Shown here piece by piece: positions 2,889 to 60,020 of a stretch of DNA of 64,000 nucleotides. The translations under genes and the position numbers were made by a program. The DNA is taken from positions 1,665,760 to 1,729,759 of the forward strand of contig OZ244038.1 in the NCBI GenBank assembly GCA_965215145.1, given 5' to 3'. The first letter of the stretch is position 1; the number at the start of each line of letters is the position of its first letter. Below the pieces are notes generated by a model. It made no database searches and had not been told where the DNA came from. It saw only the letters and a program-made list of their open reading frames with translations. The stretch is from Rhodothermales bacterium (GTDB taxonomy: Bacteria; Bacteroidota; Rhodothermia; Rhodothermales; JANQRZ01).

Positions 2889-2985
2889 CGGCCCATCAGG
2901 CGGTACCTGATTCTGACTCAGCCCCTTGACTTCATGCGCTTTTTTTTTAGGCTACGGATGCATGTCTCACCAAACACATACCGCC

Positions 2986-3618
2986 ATGCGCATCTTCTAT
3001 CCATCCCTCCTCCTCACGCTCCTGGCGTGCCTCGCCCTATCGGCTTGTGACAACGCCGAACCTGAATTGCTGGGCGCAGAGGTCGCTCCACTCATCGACC
3101 CGGACACGTACTTCGCATCGGCAGCCAGCGGTGACGACTTGAGGTCGGACCCTGACGTCCAGGAGCTCTTCGCCATCTACGACGAGTTGATGACGGCGGC
3201 TCTGCAGCACACCACACCGGGAGAGCTCAAGGCGGCCTTCCAGCAGGCTAACATCACGGGCGACACCTCGGAGCTCGATGCGATCTTCGGCCTGTCCGAT
3301 GCGGAGATCGACGCCCTCAATACGCGTCGTACGGAGGCACATCAGCGCCTCGTCGCTCGCTACCCTGACCTGGAGACGATGGCGGAGGGTGCCACGTGCA
3401 ACCCAACCTCCCCCGCCAACGTGAGCGGTTTCCAGGCCTTCTACGCCGAGCTCTACGACGGCGACGCCAGCACTCGGCCGCCCCCTGACTGCCAGTGGGT
3501 CGCCCTCGCCGTCGGCGTCGCCGCTTGCGCGGCGACTTCACCGACCGTCATCCTGTATGCGATGTGCGTCTTCGTAATGAACTGCTCCTTCTGCGAGAAC
3601 ATGGGGGGCTGCGGTTGA
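2986..3618 (+). CDS. Hypothetical lipoprotein with Cys-rich hydrophobic C-terminus
   Basis: Lipobox MRIFYPSLLLTLLACLALSAC is present. The C-terminal 45 aa contain 8 Cys ([42 protein letters not shown]). The region looks lower in GC than its neighbours by eye. I recognise no family. Confidence 0.5.
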   Translation: MRIFYPSLLLTLLACLALSACDNAEPELLGAEVAPLIDPDTYFASAASGDDLRSDPDVQELFAIYDELMTAALQHTTPGELKAAFQQANITGDTSELDAIFGLSDAEIDALNTRRTEAHQRLVARYPDLETMAEGATCNPTSPANVSGFQAFYAELYDGDASTRPPPDCQWVALAVGVAACAATSPTVILYAMCVFVMNCSFCENMGGCG

Positions 3619-7094: not shown

Positions 7095-7355
7095 ATGCCC
7101 CGCATCTCTGAGTTCTACGGCATCGCCATCTACCTCTACTACGCCGACCACAACCCGCCACACTTCCACGCGATCTACGGCGGGCAGCAGGCGGAGGTCG
7201 CTATCCGCACCGGCGAGGTCATCGTTGGCACGCTGCCGAAGCGGGCGCTGCGTCTCGTACGAGAGTGGGCGGAGACGTACCGCGGCGAGCTGTTGGAGGA
7301 TTGGGAACGCGCCCGGCAGGGAGAGCCGTTGAATCCAATCCCGCCCCTCGCATAG
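7095..7355 (+). CDS. DUF4160-family small protein
   Basis: MPRISEFYGIAIYLYYADHNPPHFHAIYGGQQAEV matches the DUF4160 N-terminal pattern as I recall it. Confidence 0.8.
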   Translation: MPRISEFYGIAIYLYYADHNPPHFHAIYGGQQAEVAIRTGEVIVGTLPKRALRLVREWAETYRGELLEDWERARQGEPLNPIPPLA

Positions 7356-7365
7356 CCCCCGAACC

Positions 7366-7641
7366 GTGGCCGAAGTCCTGCGAATCCTCAACGCCGATGC
7401 TCTCGGGGATCACCGGCTCCGTTTGCTCTTTAGCACGGGCGAGACTCGGGTGGTAGATGTGCTGCCTCTCGTCGAGCGAGTTGGCGGCCCAGTGTTCCAG
7501 CCGCTGCGCGACCCGGCCTACTTCGCCCGCGTGAGTGTCGACCCGATCTGCGGCACGGTCGTCTGGCCTAATGGGGCCGACTTGGCCCCGTCTGCGCTCT
7601 ACGACCTCGAAGAGGTGAGGGCCACGTCAGCGGCAGGCTGA
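7366..7641 (+). CDS. DUF2442-family small protein
   Basis: The pattern is DUF2442-like (LRLLFSTGETRVVDVLPL...FQPLRDPAYFARVSVDPICGTVVWPNGADLAPSALY). It lies 10 nt after the DUF4160 gene, which is the usual pairing. Confidence 0.75.
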   Translation: MAEVLRILNADALGDHRLRLLFSTGETRVVDVLPLVERVGGPVFQPLRDPAYFARVSVDPICGTVVWPNGADLAPSALYDLEEVRATSAAG

Positions 7642-7674
7642 CCCCCGCACTCTGCGGAGTGTTGCAAGAGGTCA

Positions 7675-8085
7675 TTGCCTGAACGAGATGTGCTCCGGGT
7701 GCGGGTAACAGAAGAGGGTGACGTCTGGGTCCGTGGTAGAGAGGTGAGCCTTGACGAGCTTGCTGCTCTTGTCCACGACTTCCTGCGTAACCCGCAGCGG
7801 CGGTCCGACTTCCCCCAGAAGCCGAGGCATCCCTCAGTTCACATGTCCACCAACAGGAATGCATCCTGTGAATCCTGCAATGACTGTCTGGATGCGATCA
7901 AATACGGCTTCAACCGTCTCTCTGACGAACGAGCGCAGAAGCTCTATCGCAAGGCCTATCAGGACGTGTGGTGGGGGTCCGGGGACCCGAATAGGGAGAG
8001 AAGATGCTTAAGGAGATCAGAAGAATATCATCGCACTCTCAGGTCATCGTGTTGGGTGATTAAGCCAGAGTCTAAGCGGCACTAG
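7675..8085 (+). CDS. Hypothetical; resembles the periplasmic C-terminal part of Bacteroidota-type ExbD but lacks the N-terminal TM helix (possible gene remnant)
   Basis: TTG start. VRVTEEGDVWVRGREVSLDELAALVHDFLRNP ... SVHMSTNRNASCESCNDCLDAIKYGFNRLSDERAQKLYRKAY follows the pattern I remember for flavobacterial ExbD-like proteins. The GC content looks lower than the surroundings. The tail is Arg/Cys-rich and looks degenerate. Confidence 0.35.
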   Translation: MPERDVLRVRVTEEGDVWVRGREVSLDELAALVHDFLRNPQRRSDFPQKPRHPSVHMSTNRNASCESCNDCLDAIKYGFNRLSDERAQKLYRKAYQDVWWGSGDPNRERRCLRRSEEYHRTLRSSCWVIKPESKRH

Positions 8086-52410: not shown

Positions 52411-53238
52411 ATGCGCCTGCCGACCCTCCTCCTGCTCCTCGCCGTCGGCCCTGCGCTCGCCCAGAATACCGTCACGCTCGACGCGCCGGCCGACCTCGCG
52501 CGCCACATCGCGCCGTTCGACGCCGGCACGCTCGTCGTCCTCGACCCCGCCGCGCACCGGACGGTTCGTGTCGACGCCGAGCGGGCGGGCGAGCGGCTCA
52601 CCCCGGCCTCGACGTTCAAGATCCCCCCCACGCTCTGCGCCCTCGACGCGGGCGCCCTTAGCGGCCCCGACGACGGCATGGCGTGGGACCCCGAGGAGCA
52701 CCCGTCGCAGCCGTGGTGGCCCGAGGCGTGGCGGCGCGACCACACGCTCGCCTCGGCCGTCGAGCACTCCGTCGTGTGGTTCTTCCGGGAGACGGCCGAG
52801 CGGCTCGGCCCGCTCCCCGAGCAGGCGTGCCTCGACGCCCTCGGCTACGGCAACCGCACCATCGGCGCCGACCCCACCCTCTTCTGGCTCGACGGCTCGC
52901 TCCGCGTCTCGGCCGAGGAGCAGGTCGCGTTTCTGCAGCACCTGTGGGACGGGAGCCTCCCACCCTCCGAGGAGGCGCAGGCGACGACACGCGCCCTCGT
53001 CCCCGTCCTCCGCGTGGGCGACGGCTGGCGCCTCCTCGGCAAGACGGGCACGGCGACGGACGATCCGTCGGACCCGGACGCGACGGCGCTGTACTGGCTC
53101 GTCGGCGTGTTCGAGCGGGAGGGGGAGTCGCCGGTGTTCTACGCGCTCAACTTCGAGGGCGAATCCGGCCTCGGCGCGGAGCGGGTCCGCGTCGCGGAGG
53201 CGGCGCTGCGTGACCTCGGCTACCTCCTGGCTGAGTAG
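52411..53238 (+). CDS. Class D (OXA-type) beta-lactamase family protein, secreted
   Basis: A signal peptide is present. STFK, SAV, YGN, FWLDGSLRVSAEEQVAFL and KTGT occur in canonical order and spacing. Confidence 0.85.
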   Translation: MRLPTLLLLLAVGPALAQNTVTLDAPADLARHIAPFDAGTLVVLDPAAHRTVRVDAERAGERLTPASTFKIPPTLCALDAGALSGPDDGMAWDPEEHPSQPWWPEAWRRDHTLASAVEHSVVWFFRETAERLGPLPEQACLDALGYGNRTIGADPTLFWLDGSLRVSAEEQVAFLQHLWDGSLPPSEEAQATTRALVPVLRVGDGWRLLGKTGTATDDPSDPDATALYWLVGVFEREGESPVFYALNFEGESGLGAERVRVAEAALRDLGYLLAE

Positions 53239-53243
53239 GCAGG

Positions 53244-53321
53244 CTAGTCGGGAAGGCCAGGCTCGGTAACCTCGACCTCCGGCCACCGCTCGCGGACGAG
53301 GCGGATGCAGCCAGCCGGCAT
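53244..53321 (-). pseudogene. Displaced or duplicated 3'-terminal fragment of a NIF3-family gene
   Basis: The minus-strand translation MPAGCIRLVRERWPEVEVTEPGLPD* parallels the real NIF3 C-terminus GRLIRERWPEIELVESGLPS* (54428 onward). The 30-nt core 53271-53300 versus 54455-54484 is 27/30 identical. Confidence 0.55.
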
Positions 53322-53398
53322 CGCCAATGAATTGGGAGCGTAAGCACAGCCCTGACCATCCCTAGATCTCAAGCGTCCGACACACGCCCATCCGAGCG

Positions 53399-54406
53399 AT
53401 GAGTGAAAGACAATCACGCAAGCAGCCCAGGTACCAGCGTCTCGCTCCTCTTTCTGCGGAAATGAGGGCTATGATTGCTTTAAGAGCGATGATATTTTTC
53501 TCTCCGCACAATTATAGAGAGTCTTGTGATGCCATAGGGAGAGATAGAGTGGAGGGTCGGATACGCTCTATGACCTTTCATGAATTCTTCAAATACCTAG
53601 AGGAATCTAATCTGATTGAAGAGCCTGATAGATATTTAGACCGTGTGACACAACTTGTCCGCCGTCTGGAAGCAGCATGCATGTTAGAGCCTATTGGGGG
53701 AGCTGGCTTAAATAGGGCATACTATACCAGGAAAGAATTGACGAATCATCAAATACAAGGAGATTTGTGGTTGGCTCCAGCCCTCGGGCCTGATTTTATT
53801 TATGCGCGGGTAGGAGCCGGTGTGGTTCAGATTGCGGGGAAGACATCAGATGGTGACGCTCACGCGGGAACAGGACTGGTGCTTGACAGTCGGCACGTCC
53901 TCACGTGTGCTCACGTCGTCCGCGACATGGATCTCGACGCCGAACAGACTTTCCAGGGGCACAGAGTCACGGTAGATGACAGCTATACCCATCCCGACGT
54001 GGACGTGGCTGTGGTGCGGGTAAGTGAGGCCATGCTTAGTCCAGTTCGGGGACTCGCCTTTGTCGCTCCGATTGTCGGTGATACCGTCTATACGCTTGGT
54101 TATCCCAAGCTCCCACTCTCACGGACTCCAGCCCTCGTTATCCAAGGTGGGGAGGTCACCAGCGAGGATGTGGTGCGATTCGACGGGAGCCGGGTGTTTC
54201 TTTACTCGGCCGTCGCACGGCCCGGAAACAGCGGAGGGCCTGTGATCTCCACTGAGGGATACGCCGTCGGTATCACGAGCGAGGAGTTGACCTACGACGG
54301 AGAAGCGTTCTCGCCCTACTTCGGGGGCGTCGCGACGAGCGAGATCGAATGGGCTCTAGACGAACTCGGAATCGGGATTCAGCTACCTGTAGAACGGTAC
54401 GAGTAG
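53399..54406 (+). CDS. Cytoplasmic trypsin-like (S1/PA clan) serine protease with winged-helix-like N-terminal domain
   Basis: The catalytic triad context is LTCAHVV (His), DVAVVRV (Asp) and ARPGNSGGPV (Ser). I see no signal peptide. The N-terminal LVRRLEAACMLEPIGGAGLNRAYYTRKEL looks like a wHTH wing. Two 60-nt lines I counted are 32% and 57% GC. The first 57 codons are AT-rich, so the ATG at 53570 (MTFHEFF) is a plausible true start. Confidence 0.75.
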   Translation: MSERQSRKQPRYQRLAPLSAEMRAMIALRAMIFFSPHNYRESCDAIGRDRVEGRIRSMTFHEFFKYLEESNLIEEPDRYLDRVTQLVRRLEAACMLEPIGGAGLNRAYYTRKELTNHQIQGDLWLAPALGPDFIYARVGAGVVQIAGKTSDGDAHAGTGLVLDSRHVLTCAHVVRDMDLDAEQTFQGHRVTVDDSYTHPDVDVAVVRVSEAMLSPVRGLAFVAPIVGDTVYTLGYPKLPLSRTPALVIQGGEVTSEDVVRFDGSRVFLYSAVARPGNSGGPVISTEGYAVGITSEELTYDGEAFSPYFGGVATSEIEWALDELGIGIQLPVERYE

Positions 54407-54427
54407 GGCTTCGAGGAACCTATACCT

Positions 54428-55147
54428 CTAGCTGGGCAGCCCCGACTCCACGAGCTCGATCTCCGGCCAGCGCTCGCGGATGAGCCGGCCGAGGTGCCGG
54501 AGCCCCCACGCCTCCGCGCGGTCCTGCCCGACGGCCAGCACGCGCATCCCCGTCCGTTTCACCGCCTCGCGCGCGGGGTGGCGGAGCTGCCCGGTGACGT
54601 AGAGCCCCGCGCCGCGCTCCGCCGCCTCCAGCACCAACGCCTCCGTCATCGCCCCCATCAGCGCGACGGCCTCGACGGTCTCCGGGGTGGGTCCGAGCAC
54701 GGCGGCCGTTCTGCCCAGCTCGCCCAGCTCCGCCGCGAGCCGCGCCTCAGCTTCGGCGCCAGGTAGCGGCTGAGGCCATCGGCCGACGAGCCCGATCGTC
54801 CGCTCCTTGTAGAGCAGGGGCGCGCCGTCCGGCATCAGCCCGAGCGCGGCGGCGAGGGCAGGGTTATGGCCGACGGAGAACCGGTCGTCAAGGGCGCGGT
54901 GGGCGGCGATCACGCCGAGACCGTCGGGGAGCCGGGCCGGCCAGAGTCCGAACGGACGGTGGATGAGGACGGCGTCGAGGTCGTCGGTCCAGCGGTAGGG
55001 CGGGCGGCCCGCGTCGAGCCGGAGGCCGAGCCGGCGGACAGAGCGTTCGGAGTCGATCCACACGCCGGCGGGGTCGCCGTCGCGGTGGTAGCGGGCGCGG
55101 TCGAGGTGGGGGGCGAGGTGGTCGGCGATCTCGCGGGCGGTCGGCAC
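54428..55147 (-). CDS. NIF3/YqfO-family (DUF34) metal-binding protein
   Basis: DAVLIHRPFG, VIAAHRALD and LYVTGQLRHPAREAVKRTGMRVLAVGQDRAEAWGL follow the NIF3-like layout. The GTG start at 55147 is a guess. The rest of the 1174-aa listed ORF is antisense to the BNR gene and spurious. Confidence 0.7.
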   Translation of the reverse strand: MPTAREIADHLAPHLDRARYHRDGDPAGVWIDSERSVRRLGLRLDAGRPPYRWTDDLDAVLIHRPFGLWPARLPDGLGVIAAHRALDDRFSVGHNPALAAALGLMPDGAPLLYKERTIGLVGRWPQPLPGAEAEARLAAELGELGRTAAVLGPTPETVEAVALMGAMTEALVLEAAERGAGLYVTGQLRHPAREAVKRTGMRVLAVGQDRAEAWGLRHLGRLIRERWPEIELVESGLPS

Positions 55148-58380: not shown

Positions 58381-59448
58381 TCAGGCGGAGCCCCCGTCCG
58401 CCTCTTCGTCTGAGGGCTCGCTTTCAATGCGGACTGCCCGCCCATTGAGAATCTCGTAGCCCGGTGGGGGCCACTGCTCGCGAGGGTCGGGCATCCACTC
58501 CTCATAACCGAGCCCGCCAATCCAGGAGCCAATGAGGTCCTCTTGTTTGAAGCGGGCGCTCTGAAGGGCGCTCACGCTATATCGGTCGCCATCAAAGTGT
58601 ACTACCCGTCTGATTCGGAGGCGGGTCCCCCAGAGGAAGGCTCCCAAAAGGTTAACCTCTTCAAAGTTTGCCTCTTCGAGGTTGGCCTTTGTGAGGTCGG
58701 CCTCGGCGAGGTTAACCCTTACGAGGTTAGCCCCCGTGAAGTTGGCCCCTCTGAGGTTGGCCCCTGCGAGATGGAACCCGAGCAGACGGTAGCTCCGGAG
58801 CCAGACACCCTCCAAATCGATCCTCCTTTGCTCCTGCTCCACTTTGTGAGGAGCCTCGCGCCCGATCACCGATAATGCTGCCTGGATATCCGTCTGAGTC
58901 CGATAGATACCAGGATCGTCCTCTGGATCTCGCCCCAACGGGCGGTTCGCTTGACTCGTTGCCTTCTCCCGCACGAAGGCGCAGAGCACATCAAGCACCG
59001 TCTGGTAGTCCTTCTGCGAGTCGTGGGCGATGCGGCCGAGGGCGTAGATCCCGCCGAGGCGGATTTCGAGGCGGTCGCTGCCAAGTTGCTCGATAGCACG
59101 GGTGAACCGCTCGGTGACCTGCCCCTCCTCGGCGACCCGGAGCGTCTCGCGGTTCGCTTCCTCATTGATCCGGTTCGCCGCCTCCATCGCACGGATTCGA
59201 CGGTAGGTAAGAACGAGACCTCCGATGATGACGAGGCCGCCGACGAGTTGAATGAGCGTCCGGCGGTACTCGTTGGCAACCTCGACGTAAGCCTCGGACT
59301 CCGCACGCCCGAACCGAATGTCCGTTTCGGCCCGCATCTCGGGAAAGACCCAGATGAAGGCGAGGAGGATCGCCAGGGCAAGCGCGCCCGAAAGCAGGTT
59401 GATGGTGGCCGCTATGCGAGCGTCGGTGCTGCGGTCGTCCTGGGGCAT
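58381..59448 (-). CDS. Membrane-anchored pentapeptide-repeat protein
   Basis: Two N-terminal TM helices are present. The central LGGIYALGRIAHDS region is followed by LAGANLRGANFTGANLVRVNLAEADLTKANLEEANFEEVNLLGAFL. The GC content looks lower than the surroundings by eye. Confidence 0.85.
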   Translation of the reverse strand: MPQDDRSTDARIAATINLLSGALALAILLAFIWVFPEMRAETDIRFGRAESEAYVEVANEYRRTLIQLVGGLVIIGGLVLTYRRIRAMEAANRINEEANRETLRVAEEGQVTERFTRAIEQLGSDRLEIRLGGIYALGRIAHDSQKDYQTVLDVLCAFVREKATSQANRPLGRDPEDDPGIYRTQTDIQAALSVIGREAPHKVEQEQRRIDLEGVWLRSYRLLGFHLAGANLRGANFTGANLVRVNLAEADLTKANLEEANFEEVNLLGAFLWGTRLRIRRVVHFDGDRYSVSALQSARFKQEDLIGSWIGGLGYEEWMPDPREQWPPPGYEILNGRAVRIESEPSDEEADGGSA

Positions 59449-59615: not shown

Positions 59616-59629
59616 TTTCGGTACCGCTG

Positions 59630-59701
59630 CTCCCCGGGTAGGATTCGAACCTACGACCCTGCGGTTAACAGCCGCATGCTCTACCGCTGAGCTACCGAGG
59701 A
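59630..59701 (-). tRNA. tRNA-Asn (anticodon GTT)
   Basis: I hand-folded a 72-nt cloverleaf. The acceptor is TCCTCGG/CCGGGGA (one G-U pair). The anticodon arm is TGCGG-CTGTTAA-CCGCA. The T-arm is GTAGG-TTCGAAT-CCTAC. No CCA is encoded. Confidence 0.9.
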
Positions 59702-59925: not shown

Positions 59926-60009
59926 GCCCAAGTGGCGGAACTGGTAGACGCGCAGCATTCAGGATGCTGTGGGCGTAAGCCCGTGGAGGTTCGAGTCCTC
60001 TCTTGGGCA
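59926..60009 (+). tRNA. tRNA-Leu (anticodon CAG), long variable arm
   Basis: The acceptor is GCCCAAG/CTTGGGC. The anticodon arm is CAGCA-TTCAGGA-TGCTG. The variable arm is TGGGCGTAAGCCCGT. The T-arm is GGAGG-TTCGAGT-CCTCT. Confidence 0.9.
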
Positions 60010-60020
60010 CCGACCGTACG

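Follow-up and report, generated by a model that had tools for sequence, protein, structure and literature searches.

We describe a small insertion in a 64,000-nucleotide (nt) stretch of a Rhodothermales bacterium chromosome (contig OZ244038.1), referred to here as the window; coordinates are those of the window unless another contig is named. Between a class-D-beta-lactamase-like gene and a gene of the NIF3 family lies a 1184-bp segment of low guanine-plus-cytosine (GC) content, positions 53305-54488, which carries one gene, encoding a trypsin-like protease, and which appears from its sequence to be a horizontally acquired islet in this Rubricoccaceae (Rhodothermales) chromosome. Our preferred reading, to which we attach a probability of roughly 0.7, combines site-specific insertion of the islet with a defence function for its protease. 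Taken by itself, a site-specific, Campbell-type insertion into the tail of the NIF3 gene is highly probable. The locus provides a clean natural case of an accessory gene slotted into a compact chromosome of very high GC content with its target gene left undamaged, and both the filled and the empty site are at hand for comparison.

A low-GC segment between two copies of the NIF3 gene end

The GC content is 45-62% across positions 53300-54420, against 72-77% on either side, and GC at third codon positions (GC3) is 55% in the protease gene compared with 96% in the beta-lactamase-like gene and 93% in NIF3. This drop relative to both flanks bears out an initial annotation of the sequence, which had called the segment compositionally foreign. 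The sole open reading frame (ORF) of the segment, also recognised in that annotation, occupies 53399-54406 on the forward strand and encodes 335 residues. It is preceded by a 94-nt non-coding leader (53305-53398, +), for which no match was found in any fetched locus, and is separated from the NIF3 stop codon by a spacer of 21 nt (54407-54427) that is evident on direct reading of the sequence. A promoter scan of the insert found no sigma-70-like promoter. Within the protease gene itself GC3 steps from 41% in the N-terminal third, the part encoding the N-terminal domain, to 64% in the part encoding the protease domain; uneven amelioration or a chimeric past of the gene may lie behind this internal step.

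The segment is bracketed by direct repeats. These extend over 61 nt (53244-53304 and 54428-54488, both read on the minus strand), are identical at 46 of 61 positions and are spaced 1184 nt apart; the 30-nt core from which they had originally been recognised is identical at 27 of 30 positions, as claimed. Both copies open with CTA, the reverse complement of a stop codon. The right copy, attR-like, is the working 3' end of the NIF3 gene, an intact gene on the minus strand (54428-55147) encoding a 239-residue NIF3-family (DUF34) protein, P0121 (Pfam DUF34_NIF3, E = 1.3e-17). The left copy, an attL-like remnant of the same gene end, gives the minus-strand translation ...RLVRERWPEVEVTEPGLPD* and ends 5 nt from the stop codon of the beta-lactamase-like gene, which is convergent with NIF3. 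A degenerate pattern for a 24-nt core finds only two sites in the 64 kb, one in each repeat, and none in 100 shuffled sequences, and a tblastn search with the NIF3 tail gave a second match only at 53303-53250 (E = 6e-7). Similarity of the left copy to NIF3 breaks sharply at 53304/53305, the next 39 nt, which belong to the leader, matching NIF3 at 11 of 39 positions, the level expected by chance.

Comparison with a relative supplies the empty site for which the initial annotation had proposed to look. The relatives of P0121 are NIF3 proteins of Rubrivirga and Rubricoccaceae, the closest being P0122, with 85% amino acid identity, on L005, a 7.3-kb metagenomic contig that has 2x coverage to judge from its name, and that ends 183 nt into its beta-lactamase gene. 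This contig has the same BNR/sortilin-NIF3-beta-lactamase synteny as the window, but its NIF3 and beta-lactamase genes lie tail to tail, 9 nt apart, and the protease gene is absent. The window NIF3 gene aligns with that of L005 as far as the right repeat and across it, and in the 39 nt of NIF3 that adjoin this repeat upstream 38 of 39 positions are identical. From this alignment it follows that the filled site equals the empty site plus 1184 bp, with the 61-nt NIF3 tail on both sides. The left repeat sits exactly where the NIF3 gene of L005 ends, which marks it as the putative displaced original end of the chromosomal gene. The proposal that an element had entered the 3' end of NIF3, rebuilt the gene and left the displaced end on its far side is thus upheld by the empty site and by the position of the left repeat. 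Two outcomes that had been named as contrary to it did not occur: L005 does not carry the gene with host-like composition but is empty, and no second tail that might betray an old tandem duplication of NIF3 was found in the NIF3 relatives, including those of 70% identity or less (L006-L008), which have other neighbours. A scan of genome contigs with NIF3 found one distant relative (60% identity) with a different synteny, and a scan of metagenome contigs found nothing.

The two repeats differ in their relationship to the tail of the L005 gene. Over 61 nt the left copy is identical to it at 52 positions and the right copy at 49; over the 54 coding nt the left copy matches L005 at 46, making L005 the nearest of the tails compared, while the right copy matches L005 at 43 and the more distant L006 at 44. 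At the protein level the rest of NIF3 is 85% identical to that of L005, against 70% for L006, and in the alignment the rest of the gene seemed, by eye, to have diverged from L005 a little less than the tails. The longer branch falls on the right copy, the functional one that is under selection. That the two copies are 25% apart, the left copy only 15% from L005 and the right copy no closer to L005 than to L006 suggests that the copies differed before integration, and the same 61 nt suggest that the right copy arrived with the insert as a replacement gene end.

We propose that the islet would have been inserted by a single reciprocal, Campbell-type site-specific recombination between the terminal 61 nt of NIF3 on the chromosome and a circular donor bearing its own look-alike of the NIF3 tail. 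With the crossover placed 61 nt before the stop codon of NIF3, the gene would thereafter end in the donor copy (54428-54488) and remain intact, while the original tail (53244-53304) would be shifted to the far side of the insert, still abutting the beta-lactamase-like gene. By analogy with two homologue loci described below (L047 and L056) and from general knowledge, the recombinase was most likely a tyrosine integrase, which would either have been deleted later, as seems plausible from the series formed by those two loci and the window, or have acted in trans on a non-autonomous islet. Of the hallmarks of an att-flanked islet, the locus has repeats of which one is a functional gene end and has an empty counterpart, and it carries no recombinase of its own; for this last reason we class it as an integrase-less islet, not as an autonomous element. 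The insertion itself is of a textbook type, unusual only in its small size, in the absent integrase and in its NIF3 target, and nothing at the locus contradicts established mechanisms.

The gene to the left of the insert, a class-D (OXA-like) beta-lactamase-like gene (52411-53238, +; Pfam Transpeptidase, E = 9e-23), encodes a protein with a signal peptide and STFK and KTG motifs, and scores 149 bits with the NCBIfam model bla_class_D_main, for which the cut-off is 250. It is chromosomal and host-like in composition, and an orthologous C-terminus adjoins NIF3 in L005. Given its chromosomal location, its GC3 of 96% and its conservation beside NIF3 in L005, it seems to be native, a divergent environmental enzyme as opposed to an acquired gene for resistance.

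The cargo protease

A search with the 335-residue product returned 486 protein matches at E <= 1e-3 among the proteins scored, the best of them 49% identical. Most of the best 120 of these homologues are 329-340 residues long and are aligned over 95-100% of the query. Conservation begins at about residue 10 (RYxxLAPL...), and together with the lengths of the homologues this supports the start at 53399 over an alternative at 53570. No identical record was found for either the 335-residue or the 278-residue product. None of the sources gives the family an informative name, the labels being 'S1 family peptidase' and 'hypothetical protein', and a literature search of limited reach found no paper on it.

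The C-terminal part of the gene (53816-54406, +, including the stop codon) encodes a trypsin-fold domain that matches Pfam Trypsin_2 (PF13365) over residues 157-292, scoring 77.9 bits where the cut-off is 27.6 (E = 1.7e-21). The intact His/Asp/Ser triad reported earlier is H172 (53912-53914), D202 (54002-54004) and S278 (54230-54232), and all three residues are invariant in 44 homologues. An AlphaFold2 model built on the family alignment has a mean predicted local distance difference test score (pLDDT) of 92 and a predicted template modelling score of 0.89, and Foldseek matches its catalytic domain to DegS, DegP, DegQ and Rv3671c at E of about 1e-11. On this model the cargo is an S1/PA-clan, trypsin-like protease with an HtrA-like double beta-barrel, and is predicted to be catalytically active.

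The protein nevertheless differs from the periplasmic HtrA/DegP proteases, as the initial annotation had maintained. It has neither a hydrophobic N-terminus nor a transmembrane segment (the maximum 19-residue Kyte-Doolittle mean is 1.36, and is internal), no Pfam match to a PDZ domain and no recognisable signal peptide, so that the outcome of an ordinary secreted protease, raised as a possible objection, did not materialise. Its scores with the family models are far below their cut-offs, at 28.9 against 416 bits for HtrA (TIGR02037), 28.4 against 423 bits for DegS and 74.9 against 250 bits for MarP (NF033740, E = 6e-21), the last matching only at profile positions 186-350, the catalytic part; by these measures it is a member of neither the HtrA nor the MarP family. 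The protein is predicted to be cytoplasmic. At the C-terminus of the family (residues 327-335 in the window protein, 54377-54403) there is a conserved LPxExYE motif in which P330 and E332 are nearly invariant, and which may serve oligomerisation, autoinhibition or self-cleavage.

The N-terminal domain (residues 1-139; 53399-53815, +), which is conserved within the family, was modelled alone by AlphaFold2 with a pLDDT of 90. Comprising the first ~140 residues, it is helical with a beta-hairpin, and the order of its helices (residues 36-46, 60-70 and 76-92) and strands (58-59, 97-100 and 107-109) fits a winged helix. The top 50 Foldseek matches in the PDB are mostly winged-helix proteins, among them histone H1/H5, ORC, p45, Fur and IscR. 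The earlier description of this region as winged-helix-like is thus supported by a confident model and by the nature of the top matches, but not by the match statistics, whose E-values of 0.18-1.4 are not significant; we consider it reasonable as a description, but the assignment is not established. No match to the domain was found in Pfam, among PDB sequences or in PHROG, and comparison with viral structures (BFVD) gave only weak matches of helix-turn-helix (HTH) type that were likewise not significant. A profile of the domain retrieved 274 cluster representatives among 1.84 billion, and the full-length proteins among the matches listed mostly share the same architecture of ~330-360 residues, the shorter ones looking like fragments. 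As it is found almost only in this one architecture, the domain is specific to the family and is not a sensor module shuffled between proteins.

Genomic contexts of the protease homologues

Homologues of the protease are habitual cargo of mobile DNA. A metagenome scan added 80 homologue loci; in most loci the GC content of the protease gene is below that of its flanks, and the distribution of the family is patchy and crosses phyla.

Several homologues are integron-type cassettes. On contig L025 (58-2021) three related attC-like hairpins bound two cassettes, one of which is the protease gene, and sites of the same type adjoin the protease gene on L030 (1972-3124), L041 (3843-3908) and L086 (841-909). 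On L042 (3810-6050) a distance of 108 nt separates the start of the protease gene from a divergent gene for an integron integrase, and an attC-like site begins after the protease gene. The integrase is a bona fide one, scoring 447 bits with TIGR02249 against a cut-off of 265, and the protease gene next to it is thus the first cassette. The cassette homologues were observed to share an attC type of the form GCCYAACCC...CAAACGTTRGGC.

Other homologues lie in islets related to tyrosine integrases. On L047 a full tyrosine integrase gene is directly upstream of the protease gene. On L056 a 5'-truncated copy of the same integrase gene and the protease gene stand between 75-nt direct repeats, and the 75-nt repeat is also present downstream of the protease gene on L047. 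On L064 the protease gene is alone in an insert of ~1.46 kb between 126-nt direct repeats (494-617 and 2080-2205). By analogy, a series of progressive decay from L047 through L056 to the window and L064 is plausible. By eye, the L064 repeats comprise a terminator hairpin and a stretch resembling a tRNA 3' end (T-arm, acceptor and CCA), and ARAGORN found no intact tRNA in L064; the protease frame on this contig appears to be broken by a frameshift near position 1577. In the window no attC-like site was found by a simple motif-and-fold scan, the spacer between the protease gene and NIF3 included, so the window copy belongs to the integrase-islet and not the integron type. An integron cassette was considered as a candidate for the window copy, and was ruled out, there being neither an attC-like site nor intI.

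The protease gene is also carried by two mobilizable Rhodococcus plasmids, on one of which, pKNR, it is flanked by recombinase genes. No match was found among the INPHARED phage genomes, and IMG/VR contained only 9 protease loci, several of them near contig ends. One variant, P0009 (on L009/L010, 6001-7335), has 444 residues and an additional N-terminal XRE-type HTH domain (HTH_3); it is found on its own next to transposase genes, and the genes around it in that genome have a planctomycete-like appearance.

The neighbours of the homologues were recorded, as the initial annotation had recommended; integrases recur among them, and no partner family emerges. On long contigs the homologues lie in defence islands, next to ResIII and N6/N4 methyltransferase genes (type III restriction-modification), MNT/HepT, a UvrD-like helicase, AAA_15/AAA_21, DUF4411, DUF4917, SIR2 and NERD. 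A profile scan of 101 neighbours detected integrases, a resolvase, IS110 transposases, restriction-modification methylases and AAA_15 (Gabija/PARIS-like), together with GmrSD, DISARM DrmA/DrmD, BrxH and dGTPase. An all-against-all BLAST of 103 immediate neighbours found no conserved partner gene, the only cluster being three tyrosine recombinases, and neither metallo-beta-lactamase (MBL) nor alpha/beta-hydrolase, Pepco or EACC1 is among the 25 Pfam families listed, of 64, for the 101 neighbours.

Some other features of the window were noted in passing. A second low-GC patch (58381-59448, minus strand; 59-66% GC) encodes a 355-residue protein that contains pentapeptide repeats and, at its N-terminus, a hydrophobic segment; its gene sits between a BNR/sortilin-like gene and a tRNA-Asn gene (59629-59701, -), with a tRNA-Leu gene at 59926-60011 (+). 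In L005 the BNR gene is followed by two small ORFs and a tyrosine integrase gene (133-1239), and the region after the BNR gene looks like another variable hotspot of integration. Further dips to 61-66% GC occur at 2926-3618, which covers a 230-residue, lipoprotein-like hypothetical ORF, and at 7100-8085, which is gene-poor and has a 136-residue ORF at 7675-8085.

Origin, possible function and comparison with known systems

Two other histories of the locus were weighed against site-specific insertion. The first is that foreign DNA entered by illegitimate recombination and that the 61-bp NIF3 tail was duplicated locally, with no att element involved. The failure to find an integrase, whether in the islet or by tblastn of the window, would be accounted for by such an origin in situ, as would the fact that this is one instance with no other copy of the element known. 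A fresh duplication would start with identical copies, however, and these show 15 differences in 61 positions; the left copy differs from L005 at 9 of 61, a divergence that the flanking genes, judged by eye, looked near to; moreover the functional right copy bears the longer branch. Both copies also start exactly at the crossover and finish at the stop codon, in the manner of att sites that rebuild a gene end, and family members elsewhere occur in contexts driven by integrases or integrons. We regard this origin as improbable. In the other history the islet is ancestral at the site and was lost from L005 by precise excision or deletion. Elements flanked by att sites can excise precisely and leave an empty site of this kind, and there is only one empty-site genome. 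Against this, a GC3 of 55% beside 93-96% in the flanking genes shows almost no amelioration, and thus a short residence; and loss from L005 would still require an earlier integration of the same sort, altering the timing of events and not the nature of the element. It too is improbable.

As to function, the cargo has about an even chance of being a protease that acts by itself against phages or in abortive infection and is gated by its N-terminal domain. This domain would either restrain the protease or respond to a trigger; once activated, the protease would cut proteins of the host or the phage, with no need of a partner gene next to its own. We consider an anti-phage role the most likely because the gene persists by itself in cassettes and islets, because its neighbours include defence genes, because it lacks export signals and because its triad is intact. 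Carriage of defence genes by integron cassettes is documented (bioRxiv 10.1101/2024.07.02.601719). The main rival, which we hold to be unlikely, is that the protease serves the mobile element itself, as a toxin or addiction factor, or as a DNA-binding regulator that cleaves a repressor or a protein of another element. The constant association of the family with integrases, integrons, plasmids and transposases would suit such a role, and the extra XRE-type HTH domain of P0009 and the winged-helix-like fold of the N-terminal domain would suit a regulator; yet no conserved cognate antitoxin or repressor gene lies alongside, the protease is kept where the other genes of the element are gone (in the window and in integron cassettes), and many neighbours are defence genes, not genes for element maintenance. 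Very improbable, in our view, is an ordinary housekeeping or secreted quality-control protease of the HtrA/MarP type that happens to lie on foreign DNA. Its best argument is that MarP (E = 6e-21) and HtrA/DegS/DegP are the best catalytic-domain profiles, but the scores are far under the cut-offs (75 against 250 and 29 against 416 bits) and concern the catalytic domain only. Such a protease is further contradicted by the failure to find a signal peptide, transmembrane segment or PDZ domain, by an N-terminal domain unique to this protease family, and by the patchy spread of the family across phyla on integron cassettes, plasmids and defence islands.

A number of points weigh against the combination of site-specific insertion and defence that we favour. 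The empty site is seen in one relative only, on the short, 2x-coverage contig L005, and the more distant NIF3 relatives are uninformative because their synteny differs. The foreign origin of the right repeat is only suggestive, being based on 61 nt. No recombinase was found, which agrees with the initial annotation that no integrase remains: the islet has a single ORF, and tblastn with five recombinases over the 64-kb window, itself a weak test, was negative. A second copy of the window element is absent from the collections searched, the closest protease homologue being 49% identical, and the NIF3 tail was not found next to any of ~95 homologue loci; the mobility of this exact element is therefore hypothetical. 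On the functional side, the Foldseek matches of the N-terminal domain do not exceed a query-normalised TM-score of 0.43 and, as noted, lack significance. Those trypsin-like proteases of defence systems that have been characterised usually have an effector adjacent to them as their substrate (bioRxiv 10.1101/2025.11.14.688446); the islet contains no such effector, so that it does not have the form of a protease-effector module. Matches in PADLOC-DB 2.0 are at the domain level (E = 1e-12 to 1e-5), with no full-length model, and are weaker than those to the MarP and HtrA housekeeping profiles; they are to RT-Protease_XI (profile positions 345-489 of 510), LmuA, HamA and Avs1b, and involve the protease domain only. 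A bolder reading, in which the islet would be no decayed remnant but a minimal integrase-less cassette, made up of an attP-like mimic of the NIF3 tail and one gene, moved in trans by a recombinase encoded elsewhere and bearing a new kind of stand-alone anti-phage protein, a trypsin-fold protease gated by a winged-helix-like sensor without a partner effector, is improbable.

The locus also draws attention to a small uncharacterised family that travels on several mobile platforms, namely integron cassettes, integrase islets and plasmids, and that has restriction-modification, DISARM, BREX-type and Gabija-like genes as well as SIR2 in its neighbourhood. Should defence or abortive infection by one protein prove true, a partner-less design would be added to protease-based immunity. 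As the unit is a single 1-kb gene, the family is cheap to test.

Integrative islands and prophages whose target is the 3' end of a tRNA or protein-coding gene bring a substitute for that end with them, as lambdoid phage 21 and e14 do in icd and as tRNA-targeting islands do, and in the classical layout attP imitates the target's 3' end. The window insert resembles these elements in that it is flanked by repeats of which one is the working gene end and the other, on the opposite side, the displaced end, in that the repeat spans the distance from crossover to gene end, in its foreign composition and in having a relative with an empty site. It differs in having no integrase, in its size of 1.18 kb with one gene, and in repeats that are 75% identical. 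To our knowledge NIF3 has not been described as an integration target. Derivatives that are flanked by att sites and lack an integrase include cis-mobilisable elements (CIMEs) and decayed genomic islets. The window insert is like these in lying between attL- and attR-like repeats without recombination genes, and unlike them in that no parent element was found for it and in that both its mobilisation in trans and its descent from a larger element are hypothetical.

With the defence cassettes termed BRiCs (bioRxiv 10.1101/2024.07.02.601719) the cargo shares homologues that are single-gene cassettes with attC-like sites, and both are compact, promoter-poor, one-gene units; unlike a BRiC, the window copy has neither an attC-like site nor intI, and its repeats are NIF3 tails. 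A text search of that report did not find the protease family among the cassettes it names. For anti-phage modules with trypsin-like proteases we compared Avs1/Avs2, Hachiman-trypsin-MBL, Lamassu LmuA-protease and reverse transcriptase (RT)-protease class XI, as described in PADLOC and in bioRxiv 10.1101/2025.11.14.688446 and 10.1101/2025.09.03.673762. Like them, the cargo is predicted to combine a cytoplasmic S1-fold protease with a non-catalytic N-terminal module, and it has homologues in defence islands and domain-level matches to their hidden Markov models. Unlike them, it lacks a STAND, helicase or RT sensor, no effector of the MBL, hydrolase, Pepco or EACC1 kind lies beside it, its N-terminal domain is unique, and it has no full-length match. 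Finally, HtrA/DegP/DegS and MarP (Rv3671c) share with the cargo the catalytic fold and a GNSGGP-type active site and are its best structural matches; the cargo is set apart from them in having no signal peptide, membrane anchor or PDZ domain.

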